This document shows, piece after piece, positions 8,049-64,000 of a DNA stretch of 64,000 nucleotides. Source of the stretch: a virus. Each line of letters starts with the position of its first letter. Positions within the stretch are counted from its first letter, which is position 1. The notes under the pieces were generated by a model. The model was not told where the DNA came from, made no database searches, and was given only the letters and a program-made list of their open reading frames with translations. The position numbers and the translations under genes are program-made. The DNA is taken from the IMG/VR virus record IMGVR_UViG_3300044655_002046; one strand, 5' to 3'.

Positions 8049-8983
8049 AACATCAAAATATGCAATCAAAGAAAGTTCCAGTCTCAGTTAAAACGTTGCA
8101 AAATTTAGAATTGTTATCATTTAACTTTGAGGTGGTGCAAGTAAATGTTAAGGGTGAGCAAATCAAAAAAGAGTCAAAGCAGTCCCAATGTTTCAGGGAA
8201 AATTTGGGCAACGGCATCACCTTAGAAATGGTTGCCATCCCGAGGGGGACATTCCTGATGGGTTCACCGCAAGACGAGAAAGATAGTTACAATGATGAAC
8301 GTCCTCAACATGAGGTTAACATCCCCCCCTTTTTCATGGGCAAGTATCCCATCACCCAGACACAGTGGAGAGCAATTGCCTCTCGCACAGATTTGAAAGT
8401 AAAAAAAGACCTTGATCCTGATCCCTCCCACTTTAAAGATAGGGAAGGATCATACGCGCGCCGAGATAGACCCGTGGAACAAGTCAACTGGTACGATGCC
8501 GTCGAGTTCTGCGCGAGATTATCTAAATTAACGGGAGGGGAATACCGACTTCCCAGTGAAGCGGAATGGGAATATGCCTGTAGAGCGGGGACAACAACCG
8601 CCTTTTACTTTGGGGAAACCATTACGGGGGAATTGGCTAACTATGATGCCAGCAAAACCTACGCTGATGAACCCAAAGGAGAATATCTAAAAGAAACGAC
8701 TCCCGTGGGACAGTTTCCGCCCAATGCCTTCGGTTTGTACGATATGCACGGCAATGTCTGGGAATGGTGCGCCGATACCTGGCACGATAACTACGGTGCG
8801 CCAACGGATGGCAGTGCCTGGATAGAAAATGGGGATCATAATTGTTCTCCTCGGCGGGGCGGTTCTTGGTTCAGCTATTCCCGTCGCTGCCGTTCTGCTT
8901 ATCGCAGCAATAGCGACAGCCGCGACAGCCTCAACAGCAGCCTCGGTTTTCGGGTGGTGTGCGGTGCTGGGAGGGCTCTGTAG
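8045..8983 (+). CDS. FGE-sulfatase (SUMF1/CLec-fold) domain protein, DGR-target-like
   Basis: LEMVAIPRGTFLMGS, RLPSEAEWEYACRAG, NAFGLYDMHGNVWEWC, RGGSW...CRSAYR...GFRVVC. Confidence 0.92.
   Translation: MKHQNMQSKKVPVSVKTLQNLELLSFNFEVVQVNVKGEQIKKESKQSQCFRENLGNGITLEMVAIPRGTFLMGSPQDEKDSYNDERPQHEVNIPPFFMGKYPITQTQWRAIASRTDLKVKKDLDPDPSHFKDREGSYARRDRPVEQVNWYDAVEFCARLSKLTGGEYRLPSEAEWEYACRAGTTTAFYFGETITGELANYDASKTYADEPKGEYLKETTPVGQFPPNAFGLYDMHGNVWEWCADTWHDNYGAPTDGSAWIENGDHNCSPRRGGSWFSYSRRCRSAYRSNSDSRDSLNSSLGFRVVCGAGRAL
8855..8962 (+). other. DGR variable-region-like segment
   Basis: Run of NNC/NNT codons (AGC AAT AGC GAC AGC CGC GAC AGC CTC AAC AGC AGC CTC) before GGTTTTCGGGTGGTGTG, as expected from A-mutagenesis of an AAC-rich template. 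Confidence 0.55.
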
Positions 8984-18002: not shown

Positions 18003-18629
18003 ATGAAGTATGTCACACCGAAAGAGGCCGCCCAAAACCTCGGGGTCAGCGTCTCCTCCCTCAGAAGGTGGGAAGCTGAAGGAAAAGTCAAAAGCATCCG
18101 AACACCCGGAGGGCAACGCCGTTACTGCATTGAAGAGTACGAGCCGGAAGGTAAGTCCATTGTCTGTTACGCAAGGGTTTCCACCCACGGACAAAAAGAC
18201 GACCTCGAAAGACAAGCTGAATTTCTACGCTCAAAGTATCCTCGGGCTGAAATTATCACAGAAATTGGAAGCGGACTCAATTTTAAACGGAAGCGGTTCC
18301 TCTCTATTTTGGAGCGAATATATCAAAGAGATGTCGGCTTGCTTGCCGTTGCCTATCCTGACAGACTCGCTCGATTTGGGTTCCCACTTATTGAGTGGAT
18401 TTGTCAGCAGAGTGAATGCAAACTCGTGGTTCTCAATGAATCTAAACTCTCTCCCCACGAAGAACTCGTTCAAGATATTCTGTCCATCCTCCACTGTTTC
18501 TCTGCTAGGCTTTACGGATTGCGAAAATACCAAAAGCAAACCGAAGAGGCCCTTCAAGAAGAATCCCCGCAACAAGTCGAAGAAGGAAAAACCCAACAGT
18601 GTCTTGAAGATCAGGGTCTTTCCATCTAG
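18003..18629 (+). CDS. tnpA: IS607 TnpA (MerR-HTH plus serine recombinase)
   Basis: TPKEAAQNLGVSVSSLRRWE...TPGGQRRY; CYARVS; EIGSGLN; YPDRLARFG; ELVQDILSIL. Confidence 0.95.
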   Translation: MKYVTPKEAAQNLGVSVSSLRRWEAEGKVKSIRTPGGQRRYCIEEYEPEGKSIVCYARVSTHGQKDDLERQAEFLRSKYPRAEIITEIGSGLNFKRKRFLSILERIYQRDVGLLAVAYPDRLARFGFPLIEWICQQSECKLVVLNESKLSPHEELVQDILSILHCFSARLYGLRKYQKQTEEALQEESPQQVEEGKTQQCLEDQGLSI

Positions 18630-19737
18630 GGAGTTGCATCAAGTCTGGAAACAATGGTTGGCGGCTTATCGATGGATCTACAACCAAACAATTAATTTAC
18701 TTCGCCAAGGTGCCAAACCTAATATCTATGATATGCAAGCCGAGCTTCGGGATTTAGCCAAGCCCGAATGGGTTAAAAACTTACCCGGACACCAGTTACA
18801 AGAAGCCGTTGCGGATGCTTGTGACGCGCATCGACAGGCTATTGCTAACAAGGGTTCCGCTTACTTAAAGTCATGCCGAGCAACGTCGCAAGTCATCAAA
18901 TTCAAGGCGGGAAATTTCAAAAAGGGGACGTGGTATCCTTTACTTACCAAAGGATTATCTTTTACGTCCCCCCAAGAAATTCCCTCTCATTGCAATTATG
19001 GCACCCAGTTGGTTTACGCTCGGCGGCAATGGTTTGCCTGCTTTCCTGTGTTAAAACCAATTGAGTTGACCAGTGAAAATCGAGTTATCGCTCTAGACCC
19101 AGGAGTAAGAACCTTTTTAACTGGTTATGACGGAGAAACTGTTTTAGAAGTTGGCGGGAAAGACATCGGAGCAATACATCGTCTTTGCCTGCATCTCGAC
19201 CAACTCTGCTCTTGGATTAGCACGTCTAAATCAAAACGTCAGCGTTACAAAATGCGTCGGGCCGCTAGTCGGCTTCGGGGTCGGATTCAAAATTTAATCA
19301 AAGACCTTCATGCTAAAACTGCGTCATTTTTGGTTCAGCATTACAAACTTATCTTTTTGCCCACTTTTGAGACGGGCCAAATGGTCTCAAAATCCACCCG
19401 GAAGCTCAACAAGAAATCGGCACGGAATCTCTTAACATGGAGTCACTACCGATTCGCTCAACACTTACAGCAAACAGCAGATAGGCATAGTGTTTTAGTG
19501 ATTCGTTGCAACGAGTCCTATACATCCAAAACCTGTCCCGAGTGCGGGCATATTCACGAAAAACTGGGTGGTTCCAAGGTCTTTAAGTGTCCTCATTGTG
19601 GATATCAAGCGCCACGAGATTGGCACGGCGCACGAAATATTATGTTTCGTGCTTTGCAGGCAACAGCCGTTATCTTTCGAGATGATGCCGTACTTTTTCA
19701 AGGTTTGAGTAGCGATACTCAACTTTGTTTAGGTTAA
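18331..19737 (+). CDS. tnpB: IS607 TnpB with Fanzor-type rearranged RuvC (start uncertain; frame open from 18010)
   Basis: RuvC-I ALDPGVR; IFLPTF replaces canonical xxEDL; NESYTSKTCPECG; CPHCG..RDWHGARNI. Confidence 0.9.
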   Translation: MSACLPLPILTDSLDLGSHLLSGFVSRVNANSWFSMNLNSLPTKNSFKIFCPSSTVSLLGFTDCENTKSKPKRPFKKNPRNKSKKEKPNSVLKIRVFPSRELHQVWKQWLAAYRWIYNQTINLLRQGAKPNIYDMQAELRDLAKPEWVKNLPGHQLQEAVADACDAHRQAIANKGSAYLKSCRATSQVIKFKAGNFKKGTWYPLLTKGLSFTSPQEIPSHCNYGTQLVYARRQWFACFPVLKPIELTSENRVIALDPGVRTFLTGYDGETVLEVGGKDIGAIHRLCLHLDQLCSWISTSKSKRQRYKMRRAASRLRGRIQNLIKDLHAKTASFLVQHYKLIFLPTFETGQMVSKSTRKLNKKSARNLLTWSHYRFAQHLQQTADRHSVLVIRCNESYTSKTCPECGHIHEKLGGSKVFKCPHCGYQAPRDWHGARNIMFRALQATAVIFRDDAVLFQGLSSDTQLCLG

Positions 19738-23230: not shown

Positions 23231-23428
23231 AACGGCGAGGATTGCCGGAATCAACTCCGGCGACGTAAGAGGCGAATAGCCCGTAGAGCCGCTAGATGTT
23301 ACAGACTTCCGAATGCTTCCCTAGTTCGGACAAACTCTAAGCCCGATTGGTCAGGCGTTGGGTAAAGCCAAGACATATTTCTAGCGGTGGGCGAAGGGAC
23401 TTTAACTCAACTCTTGAGGATTATCTCC
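23212..23428 (+). ncRNA. IsrB/IscB omegaRNA scaffold (stand-alone copy)
   Basis: Aligns end to end with 37264-37477, including acagacttccgaat.cttccctagttcgga and gaagggactttaact..actctt.aggattatctccATG. Confidence 0.8.
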
Positions 23429-24436
23429 ATGCAAAGAGTACACGTAATTTCCCTAGACAATCGACCTTTAATGTCGACCAAAGCGAGTCGGGCGAGACGG
23501 TGGATTCAATCCGGCAAAGCGCAGTTAAATAGTATCGTAGCCACTCATTATAATACCAGCCCGAGCTGGGTCAAACACAGGAGCATCATGACAGATGATA
23601 TGCCTCTTAAAGAGCAACAAGAGAAATTTATGCAAATGCCCGATGAGAATATTGATTATTCAGATATTCCTCCCCTAGGTGATAAATTTTTCAAGAATGC
23701 TAAACTGGTCAAACCAAATCCACAAACAGAGCAAAAAGGAATGATTTCTATTATGAAACTTAAAGGCACTATTCGGGTATTTTTAGAAGGTTCAGAAGAT
23801 GGACTCCAGCGCCTAGCAGATTTACATCAATCGGGGGAATTGCAGGCCCTTTTCAATGAACTTAAACCAGACAATATGCCCAAAATTGTCGTCACAAAAG
23901 TCGAGTTCACTACAGATGCAAAAGTTAAAGTCGAGTTCTCTACAGATGCAAAAGTTATTGAAAAAGCCAAATTAATTAAGGCAATTCGAGAGGGAACAAT
24001 CGATAAGACAACTCTACAACAAGTTGATTTAAGTGGAGCTGACCTGAGAAGAGTTAACCTGTGGGGGGTTAAACCGAGTGAGACTGACCTGAGTGAGGCT
24101 AACCTGAGTGGGGCTAACCTAAGTGGGGCTGACCTGTGGAAAGCTGACCTGTGGAAGGCTAACCTGAGTGCGGCTAACCTAAGTGAGGCTGACTTGAGTG
24201 GGGCTGACTTGAGTGGGGCTATCCTGAGTGGGGCTATCCTGAAAAGAGCTGACCTGAGTGGGGCTGACCTGTGGAGGGCTAACCTAATTGAGGCTGACCT
24301 AAGTAGTAGTAACCTGAGTGGGGCCGACCTGAGTGGGGCTGGCGTTGAAAACGCTATCTTTATCAATGCAACGGGGATCACCCCTGAACAAAAGCAGGAT
24401 TTAATTCGACGAGGGGCAATTTTTGCAGAGATTTAG
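23429..24436 (+). CDS. chimera: IsrB PLMP/RRXRR N-terminus, BrnA-antitoxin-like segment, pentapeptide repeat protein
   Basis: MQRVHVISLDNRPLMSTKASRARRWI; ENIDYSDIPPLGDKFFKNA; pentapeptide repeats; internal AGGAG plus ATG at 23588. Confidence 0.75.
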   Translation: MQRVHVISLDNRPLMSTKASRARRWIQSGKAQLNSIVATHYNTSPSWVKHRSIMTDDMPLKEQQEKFMQMPDENIDYSDIPPLGDKFFKNAKLVKPNPQTEQKGMISIMKLKGTIRVFLEGSEDGLQRLADLHQSGELQALFNELKPDNMPKIVVTKVEFTTDAKVKVEFSTDAKVIEKAKLIKAIREGTIDKTTLQQVDLSGADLRRVNLWGVKPSETDLSEANLSGANLSGADLWKADLWKANLSAANLSEADLSGADLSGAILSGAILKRADLSGADLWRANLIEADLSSSNLSGADLSGAGVENAIFINATGITPEQKQDLIRRGAIFAEI

Positions 24437-27019: not shown

Positions 27020-29980
27020 ATGCAAATCAACGTTATACACACAGATGGTACTCGTACCCCCTATGATGCCAATCGCGCTATCGAGGTAATCAACTGGGCC
27101 TGCGAGGGCCTCGAGGTAGATCCCGATAAGTTATCACGGCGACTCAATCGTCGCTTCGATACCGATACTACTACAGAGGCAATCCAGAATGGCCTGATTA
27201 GATCAGCGGCTGAACTAGCTGATTTACAATACCCTGATTGGCTGAAGGTCAGTGGTCGTCTTCGTATGTGGGATTGGCGGCGTAAGGTTAAGGCCCGCCG
27301 CGGCTACCTCTATGGTAATTATCCAGCGGCCTTCGAGTATCTGAGGTCTGAGGGTCTCTATGAGGGGAATCTAATAGAGAAGTTCCTAGACACGTATAGT
27401 GCTGATGACATCGCTGAAGCCGGCACTTGGATAGATCCAGAGCGTGATATGCGCTTTGATATAAGCGGCGCCGATCTTCTCGTCTCGCGTTATCTCCTAG
27501 AGAGCGAGCTATTACAGGAGATGTGGCTAACACAGGCATTACTCCTCAGCATGTTGGAGCCCGCTCATGAGCGCATGGCCTTTGCTCATAAGACCTATGA
27601 CCTGCTCAGCCTCGGTAAGATTAGCCTGGCTACTCCTCTTATGAGTAACCTGCGTCAGGCTGATGGTAGCCTCAGTAGCTGTCACATAATCGATATCGAT
27701 GATAGTCGCGAGAGTATCTTCGATAATATCAAGCAGCTAGCAGCCATGAGTGCTAATGGCGGTGGGGTGGGCATACGTATTAGTAAGGTGCGGGCCCGTG
27801 GTAGTCGCATTCGTAAGAAGAAGGGGGCCAGTGGTGGTGTATGCCCTTGGATTAAGATTATCAATGCTACCATCGTCGCTACTAACCAACGTGGTGTACG
27901 CGCAGGGGCCTGTACCGTAGGTATAGACGTGTGGCATGCTGATCTCCTTGAGTACATGGAGCTGCGGGGTGATGCTGGCAGTGAGCATGTGAAGGCCCGT
28001 GATATCTTGTTGCAATTCATCATCTCTGATGAGTTCATGCGTCGTGTAATTCTAGATAAGGACTGGTACCTAGTGTGCCCTACTGAAATCAAGAATGTAT
28101 TTGGATATCAATTAGCCGATATGTACGGCGATGAATTTACCGATGCTTATCACGCCATCGAGGCCTATATTAACTCTTCTGCCCCTCCGCTCGACGTAGT
28201 TAAGAAGGTCAGCGCTAAGGCTATATGGAAGAAGATGCTGATGCTCTTACTCGAGACAGGTACTCCTTACGTGGCTTTTAAAGACCGCATTAATGCGTTT
28301 AACCCGAATAAGCACGAGGGCATCATCGGTGGAGTAAATCTATGCGTAGCTCCTGAGACACTTCTTATGACTGACCAGGGCCACCTACCTATCGCTACCC
28401 TAGCGGGGCAGGTAGTCAACGCTTGGAACGGCAGTGGGTGGAGTGAGGTAACGGTACGCCAGACAGGGGAGAATCAACCTCTCCTACGAGTCCACTTCAG
28501 TAATGGAGAGACGCTCGATTGTACCTACTATCATAAATTCCACGTACAGCGTGGCATTTGTAGGAGAGAGATTATTGAGGCCCGCGATCTCGAGATAGGT
28601 GATAAGCTTATTAATTTCGATTTGCCAGTTCTATCCTTTGATAACGATGTTGACCTCCTTAAGTTAACTGCTCCTGTTAATGGTTATACTGTTCAGTCTC
28701 GATTAGAGTGGTTGGCTAGGCTGCTTGATTCTAATGGTACTGTGGTTTCTAATAGTTTCCAAATAACGTCTACCAATAAGCCCTTCTTATTACAAGTGCG
28801 GCTCATGCTACAGACGCTTGGAGTAGACTCTGAAGTTACAGCATTATCACCCCGCCAATACCGCTTATTAATTGATAAGAACGGAGTATATCAATTATCT
28901 GAGCTGGGCCTACGAACTAATCGCCTTCAGTGGGTAGCTATTAAACCTAAGTATGACAATACTAATGACATCACTATTGAGAAGGTAGAGCTCACTGGTC
29001 GTCGTGATAATACGTATTGCGCTCACGAACCTAAGCGTAACCTGCTCATGTTCAATGGCGTTATTACAGGGAATTGCGTCGAGTCATATAGTTTATTCAA
29101 TAGCAGCTACTCACACTGCTGTATACTTCTATCATTAGTGTTACCTCGTATTGCTGATGATGAGATGGCTGATGTCAGCCGTATAGCTGTGCGTCTATTA
29201 GATGCCGCGTGTGATCTTACTACTAGCCCCACTCCTGAGGCCCGCGCTCATGTGAACCGCTATCGTACCATAGGCGTAGGTGTCATGGGACTGGCTGACT
29301 GGTTAGCCATTAGGCACCTTAAGTATCAGGACCTCAGTGTCATAGAAAAACTATTCGAAGACATCTGCTTCTATACTACTCAGGCCAGTGTAGAACTAGC
29401 AGAGGAGCGGGGGGCCTATCCTGCATTCCCTGGTAGTGAGTGGAGTAAGGGCCTTATCCTGGGCGGTCGTGATAAGGAGTGGGTCAGCAATAATAGCACC
29501 GACCCCGAGAGATGGTATGCCCTCATGGAGCGTATAATCGTATCGGGTATTCGTAATTCTCACATCCTGGCTACTGCTCCCAATTCCAGCACCTCGCTGG
29601 TACAGGGCACCACGGCCTCCTTCTTACCTGTCTTCTCTCGTCTTACCATTGATAAGAATGGGGCGGGTATTAATACCATCGTCCCTCTCTATATTAAGGA
29701 GGCATTTCACTTTTATCAAGAGAGCCGCCATACTCATCCCAGTGTCGTAGTCTCTGCTGCAGCAGTTATTCAGAAATGGATAGATACTGGTCTCAGCACT
29801 GAGTTGTTATTCAACTTTAATGAACATGCCTATGGTCTCGACTACGTAACCACTGCTAAGGATCTAAATGATGTCTATCTGCAGGCGTGGCGTGAGGGCC
29901 TCAAGACATTATATTACGTGCGGAGTATATGGCAGGATAAGGTAACTGAGAAGAATGAGTGCCAATCCTGCGCTAGTTAA
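27020..29980 (+). CDS. nrdA: class Ia ribonucleotide reductase alpha subunit (ATP cone, intein-containing)
   Basis: LATPLMSN, LSSC, GGGVG, QRGVRAGA, NL/C, TIGVGVMGL, ATAPNSSTS, GLKTLYY. Confidence 0.97.
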   Translation: MQINVIHTDGTRTPYDANRAIEVINWACEGLEVDPDKLSRRLNRRFDTDTTTEAIQNGLIRSAAELADLQYPDWLKVSGRLRMWDWRRKVKARRGYLYGNYPAAFEYLRSEGLYEGNLIEKFLDTYSADDIAEAGTWIDPERDMRFDISGADLLVSRYLLESELLQEMWLTQALLLSMLEPAHERMAFAHKTYDLLSLGKISLATPLMSNLRQADGSLSSCHIIDIDDSRESIFDNIKQLAAMSANGGGVGIRISKVRARGSRIRKKKGASGGVCPWIKIINATIVATNQRGVRAGACTVGIDVWHADLLEYMELRGDAGSEHVKARDILLQFIISDEFMRRVILDKDWYLVCPTEIKNVFGYQLADMYGDEFTDAYHAIEAYINSSAPPLDVVKKVSAKAIWKKMLMLLLETGTPYVAFKDRINAFNPNKHEGIIGGVNLCVAPETLLMTDQGHLPIATLAGQVVNAWNGSGWSEVTVRQTGENQPLLRVHFSNGETLDCTYYHKFHVQRGICRREIIEARDLEIGDKLINFDLPVLSFDNDVDLLKLTAPVNGYTVQSRLEWLARLLDSNGTVVSNSFQITSTNKPFLLQVRLMLQTLGVDSEVTALSPRQYRLLIDKNGVYQLSELGLRTNRLQWVAIKPKYDNTNDITIEKVELTGRRDNTYCAHEPKRNLLMFNGVITGNCVESYSLFNSSYSHCCILLSLVLPRIADDEMADVSRIAVRLLDAACDLTTSPTPEARAHVNRYRTIGVGVMGLADWLAIRHLKYQDLSVIEKLFEDICFYTTQASVELAEERGAYPAFPGSEWSKGLILGGRDKEWVSNNSTDPERWYALMERIIVSGIRNSHILATAPNSSTSLVQGTTASFLPVFSRLTIDKNGAGINTIVPLYIKEAFHFYQESRHTHPSVVVSAAAVIQKWIDTGLSTELLFNFNEHAYGLDYVTTAKDLNDVYLQAWREGLKTLYYVRSIWQDKVTEKNECQSCAS
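28343..29074 (+). mobile_element. intein in nrdA (244 aa) with reduced LAGLIDADG remnant
   Basis: GGVNL|CVAPET ... YCAHEP..LMFNGVITGN|CVE; only one LAGLIDADG-like block (WLARLLDSNG). Confidence 0.92.
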
Positions 29981-37281: not shown

Positions 37282-37477
37282 AAGGGACAGGGTTTGCCTA
37301 GACCAATTTAGGCAACGCAAGTAGAGACTACCGCATTGAGACACAATCTGGCACAGACTTCCGAATACTTCCCTAGTTCGGATTACCTCTAAGCTTTATT
37401 GGTAAAGCGTTGTTAGACAAGGCATCTTGATTGTGTTGCGGGAAGGGACTTTAACTTTACTCTTAAGGATTATCTCC
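37264..37477 (+). ncRNA. IsrB omegaRNA scaffold
   Basis: Directly upstream of isrB; hairpins CCCT..AGGG, TTGCCTA..TAGGCAA, CCGAA..TTCGG; homologous to 23212-23428 and 44563-44626. Confidence 0.82.
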
Positions 37478-38575
37478 ATGGAAAGAGTTCCTGTTATTTC
37501 AAAAGACGGAAAGCCGTTAATGCCTACCAAACCCAGTCGGGCCAGACGGTGGATTAAGGAAGGAAAAGCTATCGGCAAATTCAACGACTTAGATATTTTC
37601 TATGTCCAGCTAACCGATGAACCTTCCAATAACAAAACCCAACCAATTGCCATTGGTATTGACCCAGGTAAATTATTCTCTGGAATCGGTGTTCAATCTT
37701 CTCTTTTCACTCTCTGGAAAGCTCACTTAGAACTCCCCTTTAAACGAGTCAAAGAGCGCATGGACAATAGACGGTTAATGCGACGGAGCAGAAGGGGACG
37801 GCGGATCAACCGCCAACTTCCTTTTAATCTAAGAGCGCATCGTCAAAAACGATTCTCCAATAGAAGAAAAGCTAAGTTGGCTCCCTCAATCAGAGCTAAT
37901 CGTCAACTTGAACTTCGAGTCGTTTCCGAACTAACCAAAATCTATCCAATTACCGATATTTACTTTGAGTACATCAAAGCCGATGTTGATTTAACTTCTG
38001 GTAGAAAAGGGGCTAAGTCTGGAAAAGGTTTCTCGCCGGTTATGGTTGGACAGAAATGGGCTATTGAGCAACTGTCTCAATTGGCAACAGTCCATACTCG
38101 CTTTGGTTGGCAAACCTCTAATCTCAGAAAACATTTGCGACTAGAAAAGTCTAAAAATAAAGCAGAACAATCACCCGAAAGTCATGCTAATGATGGCATT
38201 GCTCTTGCCTGTTTTCAATTTTTAGATTATTTGCCATTCCATACTTCTAATAGTCATGGACATGATTGGAAGGGTTCTGTTAAAGTAACAAACGCTCCCT
38301 TTGCTGTCATCAAACGTCCTCCTATTAGTCGTCGTCAACTTCACTTGATGGTTTTTTCTAAGGGTGGTAAACGACGTAAATATGGTGGATCTATCACAAG
38401 ACATGGGTTCCGTAAAGGAGATTTAGTTTCTTCTCCCAAAGGAATTGGTTATGTTAGTGGAGATACCGAAAAACAGCTATCTGTAAGCGATAACAGTTGG
38501 AAACGATTGGGACAGATAGTTGTTAGTAAGATTCAGCTAATTCGTCGTTCTAACGGTTTAATTGTTTCTCACTAA
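37478..38575 (+). CDS. isrB: IsrB RNA-guided nickase (RRXRR/PLMP, split RuvC, no HNH)
   Basis: PLMPTKPSRARRW; GIDPG; bridge helix RRLMRRSRRGRR; IYFEY; SHAND; 365 aa, no HNH/CxxC. Confidence 0.88.
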   Translation: MERVPVISKDGKPLMPTKPSRARRWIKEGKAIGKFNDLDIFYVQLTDEPSNNKTQPIAIGIDPGKLFSGIGVQSSLFTLWKAHLELPFKRVKERMDNRRLMRRSRRGRRINRQLPFNLRAHRQKRFSNRRKAKLAPSIRANRQLELRVVSELTKIYPITDIYFEYIKADVDLTSGRKGAKSGKGFSPVMVGQKWAIEQLSQLATVHTRFGWQTSNLRKHLRLEKSKNKAEQSPESHANDGIALACFQFLDYLPFHTSNSHGHDWKGSVKVTNAPFAVIKRPPISRRQLHLMVFSKGGKRRKYGGSITRHGFRKGDLVSSPKGIGYVSGDTEKQLSVSDNSWKRLGQIVVSKIQLIRRSNGLIVSH

Positions 38576-38634: not shown

Positions 38635-39279
38635 ATGAAAACATTCGTTACCGCAGACCGTTATCTCCCTACTAAGAATAATAGTCGGGATGGTGGGTAT
38701 GATCTTAAGGCCCGTGTCACAGAAGACCATAAGTATGTAGCTAAGTGTCTCTTAAAGCATATATCATTACAGAAAATGTTAGAGTCTGAGAGCGATCTCT
38801 TCATCAATGGTAATATTGTAGAGCATGGCCATATAAAAGACGCACTAGAGACATGCCTACTCGATGAGAAGGGCTTCTATGCCCTGCTGCCAGGTCAATC
38901 TGTCCCTGTCCATACAGGCTTCTATGTAACCTCGCCTGGTTTACCTGAAGAAACTCAGGATAAGTTAGTGGAGATGGGTATAGGCCGCCTAGTGCGTATT
39001 GGTCGTATCCAGCCCCGCTCGGGATTAGCTAAGCATGGTATTAGTGTAGCTAATGCGCCCGGCCTCGATGATATGGAGACATACGCAGGGGAGATCATAG
39101 TGCTACTAGAGAATAGAAGTTGCGATGTTCACCTATTCGGTGATGGGGCCCGCATTGCCCAATTCACATTCGAACTGGTAGCCGATATGGGAGACTTATC
39201 TAATTATCTCGTACGAGATGAATTTGACTTAGGTGCTACTGCGCGGGGCCCCCGCGGCTTCGGCTCGAGTGGTGTGTAA
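38635..39279 (+). CDS. dut: trimeric dUTPase
   Basis: GGYDLKA, PRSGLA, NAPGLDD..YAGEI, GARIAQF, RGPRGFGSSG. Confidence 0.92.
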   Translation: MKTFVTADRYLPTKNNSRDGGYDLKARVTEDHKYVAKCLLKHISLQKMLESESDLFINGNIVEHGHIKDALETCLLDEKGFYALLPGQSVPVHTGFYVTSPGLPEETQDKLVEMGIGRLVRIGRIQPRSGLAKHGISVANAPGLDDMETYAGEIIVLLENRSCDVHLFGDGARIAQFTFELVADMGDLSNYLVRDEFDLGATARGPRGFGSSGV

Positions 39280-39280
39280 C

Positions 39281-40555
39281 ATGAGAATCAGTACTGATCT
39301 AATTGACCTAGAGTATATTACTACTCGAGAGGAGTTAGATGCGCTATTACTAGAACTAAGGGGCCGCTCTCTACTCGCCATGGACTACGAGACCTATGCA
39401 GATGTAGAGACCTGGGGCCTTCAGGCTAGTGCACTGGATCCTCATACGTTAATAGCCCGTCTGCTACAAATTAACTGGCCTGATAATGCAATACCATATG
39501 TGATTGATCTCCGCGCCCTAGGCTGGCCCCCTGAGATACGCGACATATGGCTCGATAGTAGTATTAGGAAGGTTTGCTTCAATGCACGCTTCGAGGCTTC
39601 AGTAACCCGGGCTACGTGGGGCGTATGGCCTAATAATATATACTGCGCTATGGTGCTATTTCAGCAGATAGGCGCTGCTACTGGATTCAAGGCGGGCCGT
39701 ACTAGAGGTTATTCTTATGGTAGTCTAGTGCGCGATATACTGGATACTCCTCTGAATAAGGAACTCGCTAGTAGTGACTGGTCAGGTGAACTAACACCCG
39801 CTCAATTACAGTATGCTGCTCTAGATGTGGGGGCCCCTCGTAAATCTAATCACACTAGTCTCCTGCTAGAGGCCTATACTCTGCTGCGTAATGAGCTACT
39901 CTATACCTATGAGATGCTCCAGGTAGAAGAGATAGACCAGGCCGCCTTCATGGAGATAGCGCGTATGGAATGGAATGGACTACCCATTAATATGAATGTC
40001 ATGCGCAGCTTTCTGAGTACAGCCCAATCAGAGCTAGATTATTATAAGCTGCGCATGAGTGCTCACTTTGACTTCAGCGTAGATCAGGTAGTCGACTGGA
40101 ACTCGGGGGCCCCTCAGGTAACTCTAGTAGTACCCGATAAGATAACGGCTCTATTGAACAATCCCACTGCCCTAGTGAGTCGTATCCAGAAGCTTTTACC
40201 CGTTGAGCTAGATAATCTGCAGCAGAAGACACTAGAAACAGTGCTGCGAGAACTAGATAGCGAGGATGACGAGGATAGCACTACTGATGAAGAGGGTATA
40301 CGCGACCTGGGTATTCAGGTTATATCAGATCTATTGCGATACAAGAAGCTCGCTAAGATGGTGAGCACTAACTGGGCGGCTCTAATTAACCCGCGTACAG
40401 GTAATGTCCACGCCCGTTACCAGACCATCGGCACCAGTACGGGCCGTATGAGTAGTTCTAGTAGTGGAGATACTAATAAATTCAATGCACAACAGATTAG
40501 TAATGTTGAGCTAATGGTAGATATAGAGGAGGATAGATTGTTTGAAGACAATTAG
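39281..40555 (+). CDS. polA: family-A DNA polymerase, N-terminal part (3'-5' exonuclease plus thumb)
   Basis: AMDYET (ExoI), FNARFE, QYAALD (ExoIII), VHARY..GTSTGRMSS..NAQQI; ends before motif A. Confidence 0.9.
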   Translation: MRISTDLIDLEYITTREELDALLLELRGRSLLAMDYETYADVETWGLQASALDPHTLIARLLQINWPDNAIPYVIDLRALGWPPEIRDIWLDSSIRKVCFNARFEASVTRATWGVWPNNIYCAMVLFQQIGAATGFKAGRTRGYSYGSLVRDILDTPLNKELASSDWSGELTPAQLQYAALDVGAPRKSNHTSLLLEAYTLLRNELLYTYEMLQVEEIDQAAFMEIARMEWNGLPINMNVMRSFLSTAQSELDYYKLRMSAHFDFSVDQVVDWNSGAPQVTLVVPDKITALLNNPTALVSRIQKLLPVELDNLQQKTLETVLRELDSEDDEDSTTDEEGIRDLGIQVISDLLRYKKLAKMVSTNWAALINPRTGNVHARYQTIGTSTGRMSSSSSGDTNKFNAQQISNVELMVDIEEDRLFEDN

Positions 40556-40697
40556 TAATAAACGATTACAGCGTATACTAGCCAGCCGCTATCCCTCTCA
40601 GAGGGATACGGCATTATTATATGATGTTAATACTGGTAAGGTTAGAGTAATAGACCTCAGTCAATATAGGCGACATGACGAAAATAAAGATGAATAG
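40542..40697 (+). CDS. 51-aa ORF between the two polA halves (not in the ORF track)
   Basis: TTG start 9 nt after GAGGAGG; MKTISNKRLQRILASRYPSQRD...DENKDE*; overlaps both halves. Confidence 0.5.
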   Translation: MKTISNKRLQRILASRYPSQRDTALLYDVNTGKVRVIDLSQYRRHDENKDE

Positions 40698-41970
40698 TCG
40701 CTTTGCTCTGCAGGCCCCACCGGGCTATGCATGGGTAAGCGTAGACTTCTCGAGTTAGCTAACTGTCCATAGACAGATATAGATATGAGTAAAAGTACAG
40801 TAGAGAAGATGAATTAACTATCATCTATAGAAAAGGTCTTCAATGCTATGTACTATGATGGATGTATCTGTCTAGATAGAAAGAGAGATAAATTTGGCTC
40901 GCTTGCTAGGAAACCGGCAAGGTAATATTCCACTAACTCGGGGAAAGGACTCTCTCCCAATCCCGAGCGAGTAACACGTCAGTAGGGCTACTATCCATTG
41001 ATAGACGTGTTACCGTGTAGAGGCCATACGTGGAACACCTGAACCTAGTAGGGATGGTGAAGAGATGGTCCATCCGTGACAGCGGAAGCAAGAGTTAAGA
41101 TTGGCGGGAGCCTTCAGTAAGGATTCTGCTATTACAGAGATTTACGTACTCGAAGATGAGTATCATAGAGGTATACGACCCCTCCCCTTATCACCTGAGG
41201 GTCTAACTTATACTGACCCCAAGGTAGATCAGCACCTAGTCGCCAGTACGTTCCTGAATAAGGATATAGAACAGCGCATGGTGCACGAGCCCTGGACCGT
41301 GAGTGCGGATGACCCTATCATCGCGCCCTGGCGGAAGAAGGGTAAGATTATGAACTTCAAGGTGATATATGGTGGTAGCGCTAGTAGTTTAGCAGCAGAC
41401 CTCAATTGCGATGACAAGGAGGCAGGTCGTCTTCTCAAGCAGTACTTCACAGGTTTCCATGGCCTCTATACTTGGATTGAGATTACGGGGAGCCTATGCT
41501 CTCGTACTCGATGGGTTCGTAGCGCTATGGGCCGCTTCATTAATGTTAACGAGGATAATGCTAAGGGTATAGCTGGTAAGAGCACTACACGGCGAAAGGC
41601 AGTTAATTGTGTTATCCAGAGCTCAGGTAGTGAGATGCTGAAGATATCACTACCTCGAGTAAGACAGGCCTTAGAGGTTATAGATGCAGGAGAACGACGG
41701 GCTAGTATCATTAACGCTACTCACGATGAGATCAATCTATTAGTGCCAGGCTATGTGGCGTGGCAGGTAGTTAACTCTCGAGTAGTACCTATCTTGGATC
41801 AGGACTACTATACTGGTCAGCAACTCGATGAGTTTATGCTGGCACAACGTTATGCTGCTGCTGCATTATATCAGATGGAGAGCGCAGGTAACTATATACT
41901 TAAGGATGTGCTGGGCTCCGAGATACCATGTCGGGCTAAGCCAAATATACACCGCTATTGGTCACATTAA
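40690..41970 (+). CDS. polA: family-A DNA polymerase, C-terminal part (spliced 40690-40755 plus 41089-41970)
   Basis: Splicing restores motif A VDFSS|QELR; motif B KGKIMNFKVIYG; motif C THDEI. Confidence 0.88.
40756..41088 (+). ncRNA. group I intron (333 nt)
   Basis: 5' exon ends in U, intron ends in G; IGS TTTGGCTCG (40893-40901) pairs with both exons; P3 TTCCAC/GTGGAA; P4 CTCGGG/CCCGAG; P7 GGCCAT/ATGGTC; P9 hairpin. Confidence 0.9.
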
Positions 41971-53251: not shown

Positions 53252-53333
53252 GGGTTAGTGGCCGAGTAGTCGAAGGCGACAGACTGTAAATCTGTAGAGT
53301 AATTCCACGCTGGTGCAAATCCAGCCTAACCCA
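53252..53333 (+). tRNA. trnY: tRNA-Tyr (GTA)
   Basis: Acceptor GGGTTAG/CTAACCC; anticodon arm ACAGA-ctGTAaa-TCTGT; long variable arm; T arm GCTGG-TGCAAAT-CCAGC; CCA not encoded. Confidence 0.92.
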
Positions 53334-53362
53334 CTAAAAATAATAACCATAGGAGTAAATCA

Positions 53363-54514: not shown

Positions 54515-54953
54515 TAGGCCGTGGTACTACGTTATATATAAGGGCCCCGATTCTTATATAGGTGTGACTGATTATCTCGCGGCCGTGGCGTATGATAATC
54601 GGACTAGTCTAAGTTTTATGACGCAGCGGAGTAGATTACTCAACTACTTGAAGAAGGGTCGCGCAGATTACAAGACCAGTATTCGCCTAGCCCTCGCTAT
54701 CAAGCCCGCCAGTGTGGCAGGTTATGGTAACTATCTAGTAAGACAGAGGGGACACCTATCAGTTATTGAGCGGTGTGATGTTAGTACTCCTCATAGTCAT
54801 AAGCATTTGAAGTCCGCGCGGATCGAGCTGATTAGCTACCTCGAGGGCGAGATGAACCGATGGAGTAAAACAATTAGGACTATACGGAGATTAGATGCAG
54901 ATAACATTCAACGGCCCCTACCAGATGCTACTGGGCCCGGCAGGGAGTGGTAA
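54498..54953 (+). CDS. hypothetical protein
   Basis: 151-aa ORF overlapping its neighbours. Confidence 0.55.
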   Translation: MSILDNRPWYYVIYKGPDSYIGVTDYLAAVAYDNRTSLSFMTQRSRLLNYLKKGRADYKTSIRLALAIKPASVAGYGNYLVRQRGHLSVIERCDVSTPHSHKHLKSARIELISYLEGEMNRWSKTIRTIRRLDADNIQRPLPDATGPGREW

Positions 54954-56073
54954 GACAACATACATACAGAGTTTGAGTAAGGCCCTCATTACTAGTAGTA
55001 CTGGCGTGAGCGCTATTAATGCAGGCGGTACTACCATTCACGCAGCCCTCCAGTTCTTCGACACTACTAGTCTATTACGCTCCGCTTCTGCTGGGACGCT
55101 GGCTACTAAGCTACGGGCTATATCTAATCTCTTCGATACCCTAGTCATAGATGAGATCAGCATGCTGCATGGCCCGCAGCTATCTATTATTCATTACGTA
55201 ATGGAGAAGAATAACATAAATATGAATCTCCTACTTGTGGGGGACTTCTGTCAGTTACCGCTAGTACCAGATAGGAAGGTTACTAGCACGCCGGTATATC
55301 AAACAGAATGCCTGCAGAACTTCGATATACAGTATTTACGGGAGGTCAGGCGTCAAAGCGACCCAGGCTTCATACAAGCACTGACTAGCGTAAGAGAAAG
55401 ACGGCCTCACGAAGCAGTAGATTGGTTCATGGATAATGTAGAGTTTGTCAATCAGATCGATAATAACTACGCGGGTACTACTATCCTGACTACTAATGAT
55501 AGTGTAGATAGATATAACGCCCTGCACCTAGCGCAACTAGAGGGGCCTAGTCGTCTCTACGCTAAGAATTATGTTATACCGAAGGGGGGCAGGGCCGCTC
55601 CTGAGTGGGGCCAAATACCTGAATCAGTAGAGCTAAGGAAAGGTGCCCGCGTTATTATACTTCGTAATAGGCTGCCTACATACGCTAATGGTGATATCGC
55701 TGTAGTCAAGGAGCTCATGACTGATACTATACTGGTGACAGTAGAACGTACCGGTCAGGAGACTATCATTGAATACGTGACACGAGATAATAAAGAGCTC
55801 GGCACTAACAAACTATTGGGGCGCTGCCACTACTTACCCGTTAGACTCGGTTATGCTCTCACTGTTCATCGTAGTCAGGGACTCACGCTTAATAACGTAC
55901 AGGCCCGTCTCAGTAATTTACGTTGGCTCAGCGGGGGCCTCTATACTATTCTTAGTCGTGTACGTCACTATAGCGGCCTCCGCCTGATAGGTACACGATC
56001 CACCTTCTGTGATAGTTGCTATATAGAGCCCTCTATTCTTAAATTCTATAATCAGTTAGGTACTAAATCATAA
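54895..56073 (+). CDS. PIF1/RecD/Dda-type SF1B helicase
   Basis: GPAGSGKT, TGVSA..GGTTIH, IDEISM, GDFCQLP, RRQSD, YALTVHRSQGLTL. Confidence 0.92.
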   Translation: MQITFNGPYQMLLGPAGSGKTTYIQSLSKALITSSTGVSAINAGGTTIHAALQFFDTTSLLRSASAGTLATKLRAISNLFDTLVIDEISMLHGPQLSIIHYVMEKNNINMNLLLVGDFCQLPLVPDRKVTSTPVYQTECLQNFDIQYLREVRRQSDPGFIQALTSVRERRPHEAVDWFMDNVEFVNQIDNNYAGTTILTTNDSVDRYNALHLAQLEGPSRLYAKNYVIPKGGRAAPEWGQIPESVELRKGARVIILRNRLPTYANGDIAVVKELMTDTILVTVERTGQETIIEYVTRDNKELGTNKLLGRCHYLPVRLGYALTVHRSQGLTLNNVQARLSNLRWLSGGLYTILSRVRHYSGLRLIGTRSTFCDSCYIEPSILKFYNQLGTKS

Positions 56074-56964: not shown

Positions 56965-57351
56965 ATGCTTACTGAATTTTTGCATGATTGGGTCAAGTCT
57001 GAGCCTCACATTTGTGGGTATGGGTTGGGTACTTTTCGGAATACCTTTTTTATCGAACTATCTTGGGGTGATTGGATTTCTATCTCTACCTCTGGTCCTA
57101 ATCCCTTTTTGTTAGATAGAGGGTCGCTTGCTAAGTTGATCTATTTTTTTCAAATGCGACTAGATAGCTTTGGCTATGGCTGGGTTATTCAACGATTACC
57201 TAATAGTTATACTGTGACAGTTACCGTGAACCCCAATATTTACGAGACTTCACGTTGTTTTGTCTCTCGGCAAGAGTCTCTCATTGAGGCTCTGCTAGAG
57301 GTGTATTTAGAGGCGGTTGCTTATAAGAAAAAGTCGCTTTACGTTCAGTAA
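56965..57351 (+). CDS. hypothetical protein
   Basis: 128-aa ORF preceding the mini-gene array. Confidence 0.6.
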   Translation: MLTEFLHDWVKSEPHICGYGLGTFRNTFFIELSWGDWISISTSGPNPFLLDRGSLAKLIYFFQMRLDSFGYGWVIQRLPNSYTVTVTVNPNIYETSRCFVSRQESLIEALLEVYLEAVAYKKKSLYVQ

Positions 57352-57364
57352 AAGAAGGCATCTA

Positions 57365-60300
57365 ATGAAAGAGATTAGTACAAATTATTGGGCGCCCCAT
57401 AATGATTATGGGGCGCCTCATAATGATTATCTATGGGACGCACCTATACCTATTACTAACCCGCCAATAGCAAACGGTGATACTTTATACTATAGCTTCT
57501 ACGTTTATAATGCTGGGGGGCCCGCCAAGTTTTACGATAGACTGACAGGAAATGTTGAGGACGGTTATTTCGATGAAGATGATTAATTCTGACAATTGGG
57601 CCCCTCGTAATAGAAGAGCCCCGCATGCGTGGCTATATACTAAACCTATTACTGACCCGCCTGTTGACCAACAAGTGTATTTTGCTTATAGTCGAGAAGT
57701 CGCCTGGTTTTATTATAGACTAGGAGAATTTGCGTTATATGGCTTTTATGGGGGGCGATTACTTCAATGAGAGCGATTAGCTGTAATAAGCTTAATTACT
57801 TGTTTTATTATTATGAGGATGTGACCGTCGAGAGTCATATTCCTGAATTAAGCAGGTGCTCTATCGCCTATCATTACTACTATGAAAGCATGGGTGTCGA
57901 GGTTTATATCCTTGAACTGAACAAGTTACATGTTCCTATCCACCTGTTTTATCATAGATTAGGACATGTGTTATAATAACATTCTAGATAAGGACGGTTA
58001 TTTCTATGAAGATGATTAATTGTAATGATTGGGCCCCTCGTAATAGAAGGGCTGCGCATATACGGGATATACCTGTACCTACTACTAACCCGTTGATAGC
58101 AAACCGGAATAATTTATACTATAACTTTCATACTTATAGTGCCGGAGGAGTCGCTTGCGTTTACCGTAACCTATCATTATTTCTATGAAGAAGATTAATT
58201 GTAATGGTTGGGCTCCGCGTAATAAGCCGGTTCCGTATGAGTGGAGCGCACCCATACCTATTACTAACCCGTTGATAGCAAACGGTGATAGTTTATACTA
58301 TACTAACTTTCATACTTATAGTGCCGGAGGAGTCGCTTGCGTTTACCGTAACCTATCTGAGCCTACTATAACCTACCATTATTTCTATGAAGAAGATTAA
58401 TTGTAATGATTGGGCCCCACGTAATAAGCTGTTTCCATATAAGTGGGGCACCGCACCTATACCTATTACTAATCCGTTGATAGCACACCATAGTAGTTTA
58501 TACTATAACTTTTATGTCGGAGGAGTCGCTTGGGCTTACCATAACCTATCTGAGCCTACTATAACCTACCATTATTTCTATGAAGAAGATTAATTGTAAT
58601 GATTGGGCTCCGCGTAATCAGGTTCCAGATGACTGGGCCGCACCCATACCTATTACTAACCCGTTAATGTTGATAGTAACCCGTAATTATTTATACTACA
58701 GCTTTCATACTTATAGTGCCGGAGGAGTCGCTTGCGTTTATCATAATATAACCTATCTTAAATGGGCTTCGTATGAATGAAGTGTACCTGTACCTACTAC
58801 TGTTCCTCCAATAGCAGATGGTTATAGTTTATACTATAACTTTCATACTTATGGTGCCAGAGGAGTCGCTTGCGTTTACCGTAACCTATCATTATTTCTA
58901 TGTAACCTATCATTATTTTTATGAAGATAATTAATCCTAACGGTTGGGCTCCTCGTGATATTAAATGGGTTTCGTATGCATGGAATGCACCTGTACCCAT
59001 TACTAACCCTCTGATAGCAGATAATAAGTTATTCTATAACTTCTATTTTTATGGTTCTAGAGGAGGGCCTGCTTGGTTTTACTATGGATTGTTATATTTC
59101 GATGAAGATGATTAACGGTTGGTCTTCACGTAGTAAACTGAATACATATATCACTGACCCGTCGATTTTAGCAGACAGTGATAGTTTATACTACAGTTTC
59201 TATAACTATAACTTTCATACTTATAACGCTGGGGGGCCCGCCAGGTTTTACCATAGACTAGTGGGAGTAGCGTTGTATAGCATTCTAGATGAAGATAATT
59301 ATTTCGATGAGGATGATTGATTGTAATAATTGGGCCCCGCATAATAAGTCAAATATACCTATACTTATTACTGATCTGCTTATTAATGCAAACGGCTTAT
59401 TCGTATTTTTCGCCTGGTTTTATTATAGATTGGGAGCATCAGTGATATATCACTTTCTGAATAAGGATGGTTATTTCCATGAAGATAATTAATTCTAACG
59501 GTTGGGCTCCGCGTAATGTTAAATGGGCTTCGTATCATGAATGGAGCGGGCCTGTGCCTATTACTAGCCAGTCTATACTAAGTGATGGTAATTTATACCA
59601 TAGCTTCTATGTTTATAGGGAGGCAGGGGGGCTCGCTAAGTTTTACTATACATACCTATCACTAATCCGCCTCTAGTGAACGTTGATAATTTATACGATA
59701 GCTTTTATGTTTATGATGATGATGAAGAGGCTCGCTATATCTTATTATAGATTGGGAGCAGTGATATATCACTTTCTAAATAAGGATGGTTATTTCAATG
59801 AAGATAATTAATTGTAATGGTTGGGCTCCTCGTAATAATCCGGTTCTGTATGAGTGGAGCGCACCCATACCTATTACTAACCCGTTGATAGCAAACGGTG
59901 ATAGTTTATACCCTAGCTTTTATGATTATAATGCTGGAGGAGTCGCTTGGGTTTACTATAACCTATTTGGGCCTACTATAACCTATCATTACTTCTATGC
60001 AGATAATTAATTGTAACGACTGGACCCCACGTCATAAGTTAAATCTACCTATGCCTGTTAGGATTTATCTTAGGATTTATTATTGCGATGGCGCGGGTGT
60101 CCCAATCTATCTACCTGAATTAAATATTGACCAGTTTTATTATAGGTTGGTAAGCGTGTTATATAACATTCTAGATGAGGACAGTTATTTCAATGAAGAA
60201 GATTAATTCTTACTATTGGGCCCCGCTTAATATAAGACTTAAGACTGAGTGGACTCCATACACACCTGATGTGGAGCTTGATATGTTTTATTATGTACTG

Positions 60301-63300
60301 GCAAGAGTAGTATCCATTTTAGATGAAGACAATTGCTTCTATGAAGATGATTAATTATGAGTGGGACGCACCCATACCTATTACTAACCCGTTGATAGTA
60401 AACCGTAATTATTTATACTATAACTTTCATACTTATAGTGCCGGAGTAGTCGCTTGGGTTTACTATAACTTATCATGGATCATTACCACTACGAAAGTAT
60501 GAGTGTGGGTCTCTGGGTTTATCTACCTGAATTAGATAAGTTTTATGCTTCTATCAAGTTGTTTTATTATAGACTGACACTGTTCGCTAAGGACAATTTC
60601 TATGAAGATAGTTGATAGTGACAAATGGGCCCCACGTGATAAGTTGAATCTACCTATGTCTATTAGAGTTTATTATTACGATAACACAGGTCTTGTAAAT
60701 ATCGACCGGTTTTATTATAGACTGGTAAGCGTGTTTTATTATAACATTCTAAATGAAAACGGTTATTTCGATGAAGATGATTAATTGTAACAATTGGGCC
60801 CCGCATAATAGATTAAATATACCTATTACTGACCCGTCTGTTGACCTGCAGGTGTATTTTGCTTATAGTCCTGGAAGACTCTCCTGGTTTTATTATAGAC
60901 TGGGAGAATTTGGGACATATGGCTTTCTGAATGGGGGGCAGTTACTTCAATGAGAATAATTAGTTGTAACAAGCTTAATTACTTTTTTATTATTGTGAGC
61001 GCGTGGGTCTCGATACCTATACTCCTGAATTAAGGTTTTATGCTGTCGACCGATGTTACTATAGACTGGTAGCTGTGATATACGACATAGTAGATAAGCG
61101 TACATTTTATGAAGATGATTAATTGTAACGTTTTCAAACTTGCTTTGTTTTACGACTGGACTATCAAGAATAAGCTAAAGGCCCATACACTTATTACCTC
61201 TGTCGACAGGTTTTACTATAGACTAGTGGCTTTTATATATAACGCTCTATATGAGGATGATTATTTTGATGAAGAAGATTAAATCTCACAATTGGGCTCC
61301 TCGTTATGCGTGGACTCCATACATACCTACCACTAATCCGCCTCTAGTGAGCATTGATAATTTATACGATAGCTTTTATGTTTATAATGATGCTGGGGGG
61401 CTTGCTATGTTTTATTATATACTGGCATCACTTTCTGATAACAGATGGTTATAGTATAAACTATAACTTTCATGCTTATAATAATCAAGGGCTTGCTTGG
61501 TTTTACTGTAACCTATCATTAAGGGCTCGCTATATTTTATTATAGATTGGGAGCAGTGATATATCACTTTCTGAATAAGGATGGTTATTTCAATGAAAAA
61601 GATTAATTGTAACAATTGGGCCCCTCGTAATGTTGATTGGGCTTCGCATTATGAATGGAGCGGGCCTGTGCCTATTACTAGCCCGCTTATACTAAGTGAT
61701 GATATTTTATACTATAGCTTCTATGCTTATAATACTGGGGGGCCCGCTAAGTTTTACTATTTACTGATCCGCCCGTTAACCTACACGGATTATTAAGCAA
61801 ATTGTATTTTGCTTATAGTCTTGGGAGACTTGCTTGGTTTTATTATAAATTAGGAGAACTTGTAATATATAGCTTTCTTAATGAAGAGGACGATTACTTC
61901 AATGAGACTAATTAACTGTGACGAGCACATTGACGAGCACATTCAGATAAGTGACTTATTAGTTAAGCTCGATTATTATATTGCCTTGTTTTATTATGAG
62001 AACATGGGCCTCGATACCTATACTTTTGAATTAAGTAAGTTCTCTGGCTCTATCAACTTGTTTTATCATAGATTAGAACATTTACATAACACTCTAGATG
62101 AGAACAATTATTTCTATGAAGTTGATTAATTGTGACGCCCTGTTTTATTGTATGAGGGTATGTGTTTTTACAACTCCTGTACCTGAATTAGTCAGGTTCC
62201 ATGGTTCTATCAACCTATTTTATCATAGATTAGGAGATGTGTTATGTAGCATTCTAGATAAGGACGGTTATTTTGATGAAGATGATTAATTGTAACAATT
62301 GGGCTAATAACGATTGGACTCTACGTAATAAGTCGAATATACCTATACTTATTACTAACCCGCCGATTTTACTAAATGGTGATAATCTATACTATCTATG
62401 GGTCTATCGTTACTATCATAAAAGCATGGGTCTCGGGGCTTATATCCCTGAATTGGACAAGTTATATGATTCTATCGACTTGTTTTATTATAAACTATCA
62501 AATTTGTTATATGACTTTCTAGGGGAGGGGGATTATTTTTATGAAGAGGATTGATGACTGGGCTCCGCGTATGCCTATATCTATTACTGATCTGCCCGTT
62601 GACCTAGACAGATCATTAACCAAATTGTATTTTGCTTATAGTCCTAGAAACCTTGTTTATTATAGATTAGTAGTTCTTGTAATATATAGCTTTCTTAATA
62701 GAGAGAACGATTACTTCAATGAGAGTGATTAACTGTGACGCCCTGTTTTATTGTATAAGGGTATGTGTCTTTACAACTCATGTACCTGAATTAGTCAGGT
62801 TCCATGGTTCTATCAACCTGTTTTATCATAGATTAGGAGATGAGTTATATAACATTCTAGATGAGAACAGTTATTTCGATGAAGATGCTTAATTGGGACG
62901 CCCCGTTTTATTATCATGAGGGTATGTGGCTTATAACTTATATACCTGAATTAGACAGGTACCATGGTTCTATTTCTATCAACCCGTTTTATTATAGATT
63001 AGGAGATGAGTTATATAACATTTTATATGAAGACGGTTATTTCGATGAAGATGATTAAACGTAACAATTGGGCTCAGCGTAATAGATTAAATATATCTAT
63101 ACCTATTACTGATTCGCCCATTGACCTACACGAATTAATAGCTTATAGTCCTGGGAAACTTTCTTGGTTTTATTATAGATTAGGAGAACTTGTAATATAT
63201 AGCTTTCTTAATAGAGAGGACGATTACTTTAATGAGAGCGATTAGTTGTAATAAGCTTAATTACTTATTTTATTATTATGAGGATGTGACCCTCGAGAGT

Positions 63301-64000
63301 CATATTCCTAAATTAAGCAAGTGCTCTATCAACCGGTTTTATTATAGACTGGTAGCTGTAATACACAACATACTATATAAGTATACATTCTATGAAGATG
63401 ATTGATAACGATCTCGGGCTTGCTTTGTTTTACAACTTGATTCTGTACAATTGGAATGTGTATAATAAGCTGAAGGGGGCCTCTATACCTGTTAACGCTG
63501 TCAACCTGTTTTATTATAGACTGGTAAATGTATTGGATAACACATTTTAGATGAGAATGAATAAAGATGACATTATACATAAGGACGGTTATTCTGGTGA
63601 AGACTATTATATGTGACGAGTTAACTCTACACAATAAACTTAGAGCCTCTATGCTTATTGAGCCTTCCGTTAGGGCAACCGGCTTAGTGTCTAGGTTTTA
63701 TTTAATGAGCAGGTATTACATTGGTTCGTTTTACTCTAGATTATATAGCGCTCTAGATGAGAGTGATTACTTCAATGAAGAATATTTCTAACGATTGTCT
63801 GTTATCTTGGACTTTGAATAATGATTATCTCAATGCTTTGCGCTTGTTTCATTATTATGAAGTGATGGGTTTCGAGATCTATACTCCTAAACTAAGCGAG
63901 TGTTGCGGCTCTATCTTCCGGTTTTACTGTAGATTGATAAATATGTTAGAAATCATCCTAGATGAAGATGATATTTTAGATGAGGGCGATTATTTCGATG
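57365..64000 (+). repeat. tandem array of ~32 overlapping Tyr-rich mini-ORFs (about 50-90 aa), continuing past the window end
   Basis: Unit starts read at 57365, 57573, 57767, 58006, 58185, 58387, 58580, 58921, 59102, 59307, 59479, 59798, 59997, 60193, 60341, 60602, 60771, 60950, 61109, 61269, 61593, 61902, 62116, 62276, 62541, 62719, 62879, 63045, 63232, 63392, 63597, 63775; junction TATTTYNATGAAGANRATTAATTGTAA. Confidence 0.92.

Follow-up and report, generated by a model that had tools for sequence, protein, structure and literature searches.

The last part of the viral DNA stretch analysed here (64,000 nucleotides in all, hereafter the window) consists of very short, tyrosine-rich reading frames that lie head to tail on the + strand (57365–64000) and run on past the window. 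This arrangement raises the questions of whether the frames are translated, how so many related copies arise and change, and what use their products could be to a phage. As an answer to the last question we tentatively favour, at a little below an even chance, a birth-and-death family of host-binding motif peptides that are mostly disordered and most likely used against polymorphic anti-phage proteins. The evidence on each question is given below, together with the competing explanations.

Organization and identity of the array

A junction profile scan of the window identified 31 junctions on the + strand at 57573–63775; neither the rest of the 64-kb window nor its minus strand yielded any. 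Together with the first unit, which starts at 57365, these positions define 32 units of 148–341 bp each, in agreement with the chain of about 32 coupled mini-genes described in the first-pass annotation. Each junction is a 14-nt overlap that encodes the acidic end of the upstream peptide, ..YF(D/Y/N)E(D/E)D*, and, in the +1 frame, the start of the next one, MK(K/M/I)IN, so the dual-coding nature of the junction was also described correctly. The length of a unit is 1 mod 3 in 245 of 323 cases from 13 loci, which exceeds chance. Of 273 distinct junctions, 182 have a Shine-Dalgarno-like 4-mer. The earlier proposal that the junction supplies such a sequence therefore holds for these junctions but is not universal, as five starts in the window (58185, 58387, 58580, 58921 and 59997) are without one.

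Twenty units in the window are intact and coupled through the acidic tail, with an overlap of 14–17 nt with the next unit. These are unit 1, units 5–6 (58185–58593, without a Shine-Dalgarno sequence), units 8–10 (58921–59492), units 12–14 (59798–60354), unit 16 (60602–60784), unit 19 (61109–61282), an unbroken run formed by units 22–29 (61902–63405), and unit 31 (63597–63791), which has a GTG start. Three units are frameshifted yet coupled by an ATGA overlap: unit 2 (57573–57770), in which the frameshift follows FYYRL and the acidic tail is missing, unit 4 (58006–58188) and unit 17 (60771–60953). The variant type represented by unit 2 persists in 7 loci. Eight further units have earlier stops or lost junctions. 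Partial units are fused and stop early in unit 7 (58580–58934, two partial units), unit 11 (59479–59811) and units 20–21 (61269–61915, with the stops past the core). Unit 15 (60341–60615) likewise stops early past its core, and a second ORF begins at 60475 and extends to the following junction; unit 18 (60950–61122) has an early frameshift in a T run and a first ORF without the core; and unit 30 (63392–63550) stops 46 nt early, past the core. Unit 3 (57767–57976) stops 29 nt early and has 1 nt more than its intact counterpart in three close strains, the extra nucleotide presumably being either a recent mutation or an assembly error. Unit 32 (63775–64000) is cut by the window end. Within the window, 16 of 30 units have an internal block of at least 35 nt at ≥90% identity in common with part of another unit, and the mosaic interiors that had been noticed are thus real. 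Junction profile, overlaps and shared blocks together confirm the original observation as a whole.

The statement that no family could be recognised did not survive comparison with known phages. The ribonucleotide reductase of the window is 91–92% identical to those of the Microcystis phages Ma-LMM01, MaMV-DC and their relatives, and DNA matches to the array stretch are limited to nine records of these same phages. On these two comparisons we assign the window to a Fukuivirus, that is, a Ma-LMM01-like Microcystis phage. All seven units tested match the profile of PHROG 4393 (E 4e-9 to 1e-23), a family of unknown function, and the units are counterparts of Ma-LMM01 gp137–gp157, which lie between gp158 and the primase. 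The gene order expected for a Fukuivirus, namely helicase, gp159, gp158, array and primase, was confirmed. Equivalents are MaMV-DC ORF133–143 and MaMV-DH01 ORF160–178, with others in CH01, all labelled hypothetical proteins in GenBank. The arrays of Ma-LMM01, MaMV-DC and MaMV-DH01 share with the window the family, the position between gp158 and primase and, in their annotation, the 14-nt overlaps; the window differs from them in having more units (32 or more) in another order. Yoshida and colleagues reportedly noted these Ma-LMM01 ORFs as a paralogue group in 2008. In the literature covered, which extends to papers other than the original genome paper, we found none that describes how the junction is built, how units are coupled or how they evolve, and none that mentions gp137. 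The genes themselves have entries as hypothetical proteins in GenBank and PHROGs; their architecture is undescribed in the literature found.

The array was present in 16 of 16 helicase loci of relatives that were long enough to test, and complete arrays comprise about 20–49 units over 3.4–9.9 kb, the closest strains having 39–49. When 1.84 billion proteins were searched with the profile, 70 matched, 69 of them plainly of the array family; the only other one, P0064, is an unrelated repeat and was rejected as a member. This spurious match led to a metagenome contig that has nothing to do with the array and contains a long tandem repeat (L019, 5001–11348). Longer or fused homologues of the units were not found, which is weak evidence. 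There was no match in 5 Microcystis genomes, searched without a positive control, and the exact junction sequence was absent from the GTDB genomes searched; both results speak against a host origin of the array. In a sister lineage whose primase is 45% identical, the helicase abuts the primase with no array between them, indicating that the array is an insertion rather than a core replication element. We read these data best as a birth-and-death gene family that is specific to Fukuiviruses and was inserted between helicase and primase.

In the window the gp160-like helicase (54895–56073, + strand) lies upstream of a leader gene of 128 aa (56965–57351, + strand), which lies directly 5′ of the array in 11 of 11 loci checked. 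In three relatives the leader gene runs at its end into unit 1 through the 14-nt junction that is also found between units, which makes this gene the likely source of the junction and entry point for ribosomes. Its protein has a confident predicted fold (pLDDT 88) with an alpha-beta-beta-beta-alpha order, a common arrangement of the dsRBD/HPF-like kind that gave middling Z scores of 5–6 only in the fold search; there was also a weak Phage_ABA_S lead. At the other end, the interval between array and primase contains fragments of host-like UbiD and SMC/AAA genes in close strains (L020 12643–14557; L022 16463–17589) and an IS607-type element or an antitoxin-like gene in other relatives. As judged from its gene content, this interval is a gene-capture hotspot.

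Turnover of units by recombination in register

Comparison of the window with three close strains (97–99% identical) revealed deletions of 1068, 1792 and 603 bp, located at exact repeats of 50, up to 62 and 39 bp, respectively, and in each case the products are in-frame chimeras. Unit 1 of the window (57365–57586) is the chimera formed by the 1068-bp deletion relative to the three strains. In one close strain the 603-bp deletion joined the head of the unit at 62116 to the tail of the unit at 62719 across the 39-bp repeat. Clean breakpoints lie at offsets of about 29, 85 and 108 inside units, within exact repeats of 39–62 bp. Unit turnover is homologous recombination in register between repeated internal modules, with the consequence that new chimeras are born in frame. 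The phage RecA (25532–26602, + strand) is the candidate driver and would carry out the shuffling.

Two other sources of variation were considered and rejected. Breakpoints at varying offsets, with no fixed crossover site, do not support a site-specific cassette array of the integron or shufflon type, and the flanks of the compared loci contain no dedicated recombinase that is constantly next to the array. A diversity-generating retroelement is not supported, since the substitutions are ordinary transitions (A/G 510 and C/T 432 of 1323); no reverse transcriptase was seen among the array-flanking genes.

The hypervariable cassettes of T-even phages, such as the T4 ip1 locus and PeSL, consist of small accessory genes shuffled by recombination, one of which encodes the anti-restriction protein IPI*. 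The array resembles them in having small variable genes that recombine between conserved elements. However, the T-even cassettes hold mostly unrelated folded proteins between non-coding repeats, whereas the array consists of paralogues with a dual-coding repeat and with breakpoints inside the genes. It is a real and odd variant of the hypervariable gene arrays of phages.

Selection on reading frame, coupling and amino acids

The first-pass annotation had proposed dN/dS as a check and had named a lack of translation together with a lack of selection on frame as a refuting outcome. Among closely related units we observed 8 nonsense changes versus 44 expected (P about 1e-11), and 71 of 90 net length changes were multiples of three. 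The ATG is kept at 265 of 273 junctions, and the junction stop switches between TAA, TGA and TAG (168, 40 and 27 cases). Synonymous change that would erase this stop is rare, with an ATC to ATT ratio of 5:238 compared with 255:697 elsewhere. This conservation of frame, start and stop constitutes strong indirect evidence that the units are translated and coupled. During Ma-LMM01 infection gp137–157 behave as middle-class rather than early genes, at log2 values of 7.3–9.8, lower than their neighbours and with the primase at 10.9 (PMC5780444, Table S3); we found no proteomic evidence for the peptides. Frame selection, start and stop conservation, the strain chimeras and transcription in Ma-LMM01 all support the earlier view of a recombination-driven, translated combinatorial peptide set.

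The frame data also bear on the idea of a neutral or selfish accordion, or of genome-length filler, in which the frame is kept only against polarity on the downstream replication genes. Such an element would fit the large deletions between close strains, the third of units that are broken, mostly at the 3′ end, and the absence of the array from the sister lineage. It would not lead one to expect an array in every testable locus, strong depletion of nonsense with preferential retention of the core, or insertion of other genes and IS elements between array and primase, and we regard it as improbable.

The dN/dS ratio of the array was 0.87 (95% interval 0.77–1.0) versus 0.27 in flanking genes, an overall value that is compatible with mixed selection as well as with relaxed constraint and does not separate them. 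In matched genome pairs, second codon positions evolved 3 times faster than in the flanks and four-fold sites only 0.7 times as fast, so the mutation rate is not raised. Replacements were absent at the Tyr of FYxxL (0 versus 11.2 expected, with normal synonymous change) and at the Tyr of LYYxF (0 versus 4.6 expected). Conversely, the two positions just after FYxxL had 30 and 32 replacements versus 16 expected, an excess at single sites that gene conversion may inflate. Radical amino-acid changes occurred at 0.64 of expectation, and Trp was enriched 1.65-fold despite its stop-prone codon. By these measures the amino acids of the array evolve almost neutrally, barring a few aromatic and Leu anchors and some sites above 1. 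The units fall into about 70 subfamilies. Broken units retained the core in 31 of 66 cases versus 22% under random lesions, a rough null because many breaks are recombination products. It is unusual for phage genes to evolve with frame and coupling under strong selection while their amino acids are nearly free.

The first-pass annotation had suggested that aromatic, acidic peptides might act as nucleic-acid mimics. The acidic tail has a dN/dS of about 1, and no other part is lost as frequently in the variants that persist; forms without it are maintained in several genomes. This speaks against the tail as the active part of the peptide and weakens that suggestion. On the properties considered for DNA mimics of the Ocr type, the peptides have a median net charge of −3, in addition to this often-lost tail, and the structural model of the unit is unreliable.

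Variability at third codon positions does not exceed that at first and second positions, even across distant subfamilies, which is atypical for proteins. A function at the level of nucleic acid would make the repeats promoter-like or protein-binding DNA or RNA sites, the open frame merely keeping ribosomes on the message. Sigma70-like sites on the + strand numbered 28 versus 15 after synonymous recoding (70 versus 43 in a separate count), and synonymous positions of the FYxxL motif are fixed across subfamilies (TTT 54/54, AGA 41/43), the invariant bases also fitting a −10 box; together these could still mark a DNA-level signal. However, the copies are not independent, and the apparent synonymous freeze at the anchors mostly vanished with directional mutation rates, under which synonymous change there is not significantly depleted. 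Folding energies of the units equalled those of shuffles (mean z −0.13), Rfam gave no match, and the FYYRL hairpin showed no covariation in any register, the covariation test covering this hairpin and N-terminal stems being inspected by eye only. We consider a nucleic-acid function quite unlikely. A structured RNA decoy array was rejected on the same grounds, as hairpins and apparent compensatory changes picked out by eye were not upheld. RNA decoys of phages, such as the pseudo-ToxI of phiTE and the solitary repeats called Racr, are repeated phage sequences that have been suggested to counteract host defence. They are structured RNAs that do not code for protein, whereas the array has a selected frame and unsupported RNA structure.

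The junction itself (e.g. 58185–58207) matches, at 14 of 15 nt, the reverse complement of the 5′ end of the Microcystis type I-D repeat given in Table 3 of PMC4428289, with a score that was not exceeded in 150 shuffles. The junction might on this basis imitate part of the repeat and divert Cas proteins. The comparison is post hoc, however, and one shuffle tied the score; the likeness extends to 15 of 37 nt, has no Cas6 stem and lies mostly on the untranscribed strand, and the start/stop overlap accounts for the same bases, which makes such mimicry most improbable. The array is not a CRISPR array or Racr, as only those 15 nt resemble the repeat and the units are 148–341 bp long and mutually homologous. 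CRISPR-driven escape was likewise rejected: in a small sample of 438 type I-D spacers none matched the array and 3 matched its flanks, and the Ma-LMM01 spacers considered from the table of PMC4428289 fall outside the array.

Properties and possible roles of the peptides

The peptides are 48–96 aa long and mildly acidic. They are rich in Tyr (11.7% versus 4.4%, or 2.7-fold), Phe (2-fold) and Asn (9.3%, 1.9-fold) and poor in Gln (0.4%, 0.1-fold). A tRNA-Tyr(GTA) gene (53252–53334, + strand) 4 kb upstream of the array may serve these Tyr-rich products; alternatively, this tRNA could counter a host tRNA nuclease. The AlphaFold check suggested earlier yielded no confident fold for a unit (AlphaFold2 pLDDT 45), making a fold search meaningless, and the units had no match in Pfam, NCBIfam, PDB or Atlas and no solved relative. 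From this modelling the peptides are probably mostly disordered.

Lack of a fold and of any transmembrane stretch, together with a dN/dS near 1 under conserved composition, would suit a bulk role, in which aromatic-rich disordered chains serve as a chaperone or protease sink or form a condensate or aggregate round phage DNA, composition mattering and exact sequence hardly. The 8 host genes that respond to infection, with small effects, include GroES/GroEL and a heat-shock gene. Nevertheless, a bulk role needs neither about 70 subfamilies nor sites with excess replacement, and expression is modest, so we consider it unlikely.

A further reading makes the units precursors of modified, RiPP-like peptides that a phage or host enzyme would process. 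The conserved N-terminus and hypervariable body recall the prochlorosin (procA/ProcM) libraries of picocyanobacteria, which are also many short hypervariable paralogues of unknown function in a cyanobacterial setting (PMC10783134). The array differs from these in being overlap-chained and phage-borne, with no Nif11 leader or lanthipeptide synthetase and with only 1.5% Cys. It had been proposed that the sequence past 64000 be inspected for a recombinase or modifying enzymes. In relatives this region holds a radical-SAM gene about 5 kb downstream of the array, a possible processing enzyme, and no constant adjoining recombinase. The gene belongs to the replication block and does not adjoin the array, the surroundings of the units showed no leader/core boundary, protease or exporter, and no unit matched a precursor or leader family in Pfam or NCBIfam, all of which renders this reading very improbable.

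An array with few anchors and variable residues next to them, which turns over fast yet is universally retained by phages whose host is rich in defence genes (PMC5780444), fits best with strain-specific host-binding peptides, the reading that we favour. Units kept in open frame, chained by the 14-nt start/stop overlap and transcribed along with middle genes, are deleted, swapped and fused in register by unequal homologous recombination between internal modules. The anchors (Tyr and Leu of FYxxL, Tyr of LYYxF and an early Trp) are held as the rest drifts or diversifies. We infer that the aromatic motif would bind a host protein surface that differs between Microcystis strains and that the peptides would, as their most likely use, inhibit or titrate polymorphic anti-phage proteins. 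Each unit would then matter in some hosts only, giving near-neutral averages and frequent loss. Use of the peptides in counter-defence, for example as decoys, is plausible, though slightly less than evenly probable. A related reading, that the dual-coding junction and in-register recombination make up a self-framing diversity generator, supplying a 30–50-member library of disordered peptides against strain-variable defences and setting host range, is a possible but doubtful one.

Fukuiviruses serve as models for the phages of toxic Microcystis blooms. Their host ranges are narrow and poorly explained, on a host very rich in defence systems, and every one of them gives roughly 4–10 kb to the array. 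If the peptides act in counter-defence, the array would represent dozens of natural inhibitors and a host-range marker. Its unusual mode of gene evolution is testable with the existing cultured pair Ma-LMM01 and Microcystis NIES-298.

Several other features of the window were recorded. The ribonucleotide reductase alpha gene (27020–29980) contains about 200 inserted aa with a LAGLIDADG-like match; the insertion is absent from cultured relatives and is probably an intein. Two paralogous pentapeptide-repeat proteins of host-like type are encoded at 2557–3411 and 23387–24436, and the DNA polymerase (39233–41970) is apparently split into two ORFs that lie about 550 bp apart. By inspection, an IS607-like resolvase and TnpB-like pair lies at 18003–19737 and an RRXRR/IscB-like gene at 37427–38575; a second group of small paralogous genes, AT-rich, occupies 633–1482 and 2054–2482; and 8045–8983 encodes a protein with a cyanobacterial-type formylglycine-generating-enzyme-like domain, whose family diversity-generating retroelements often target.
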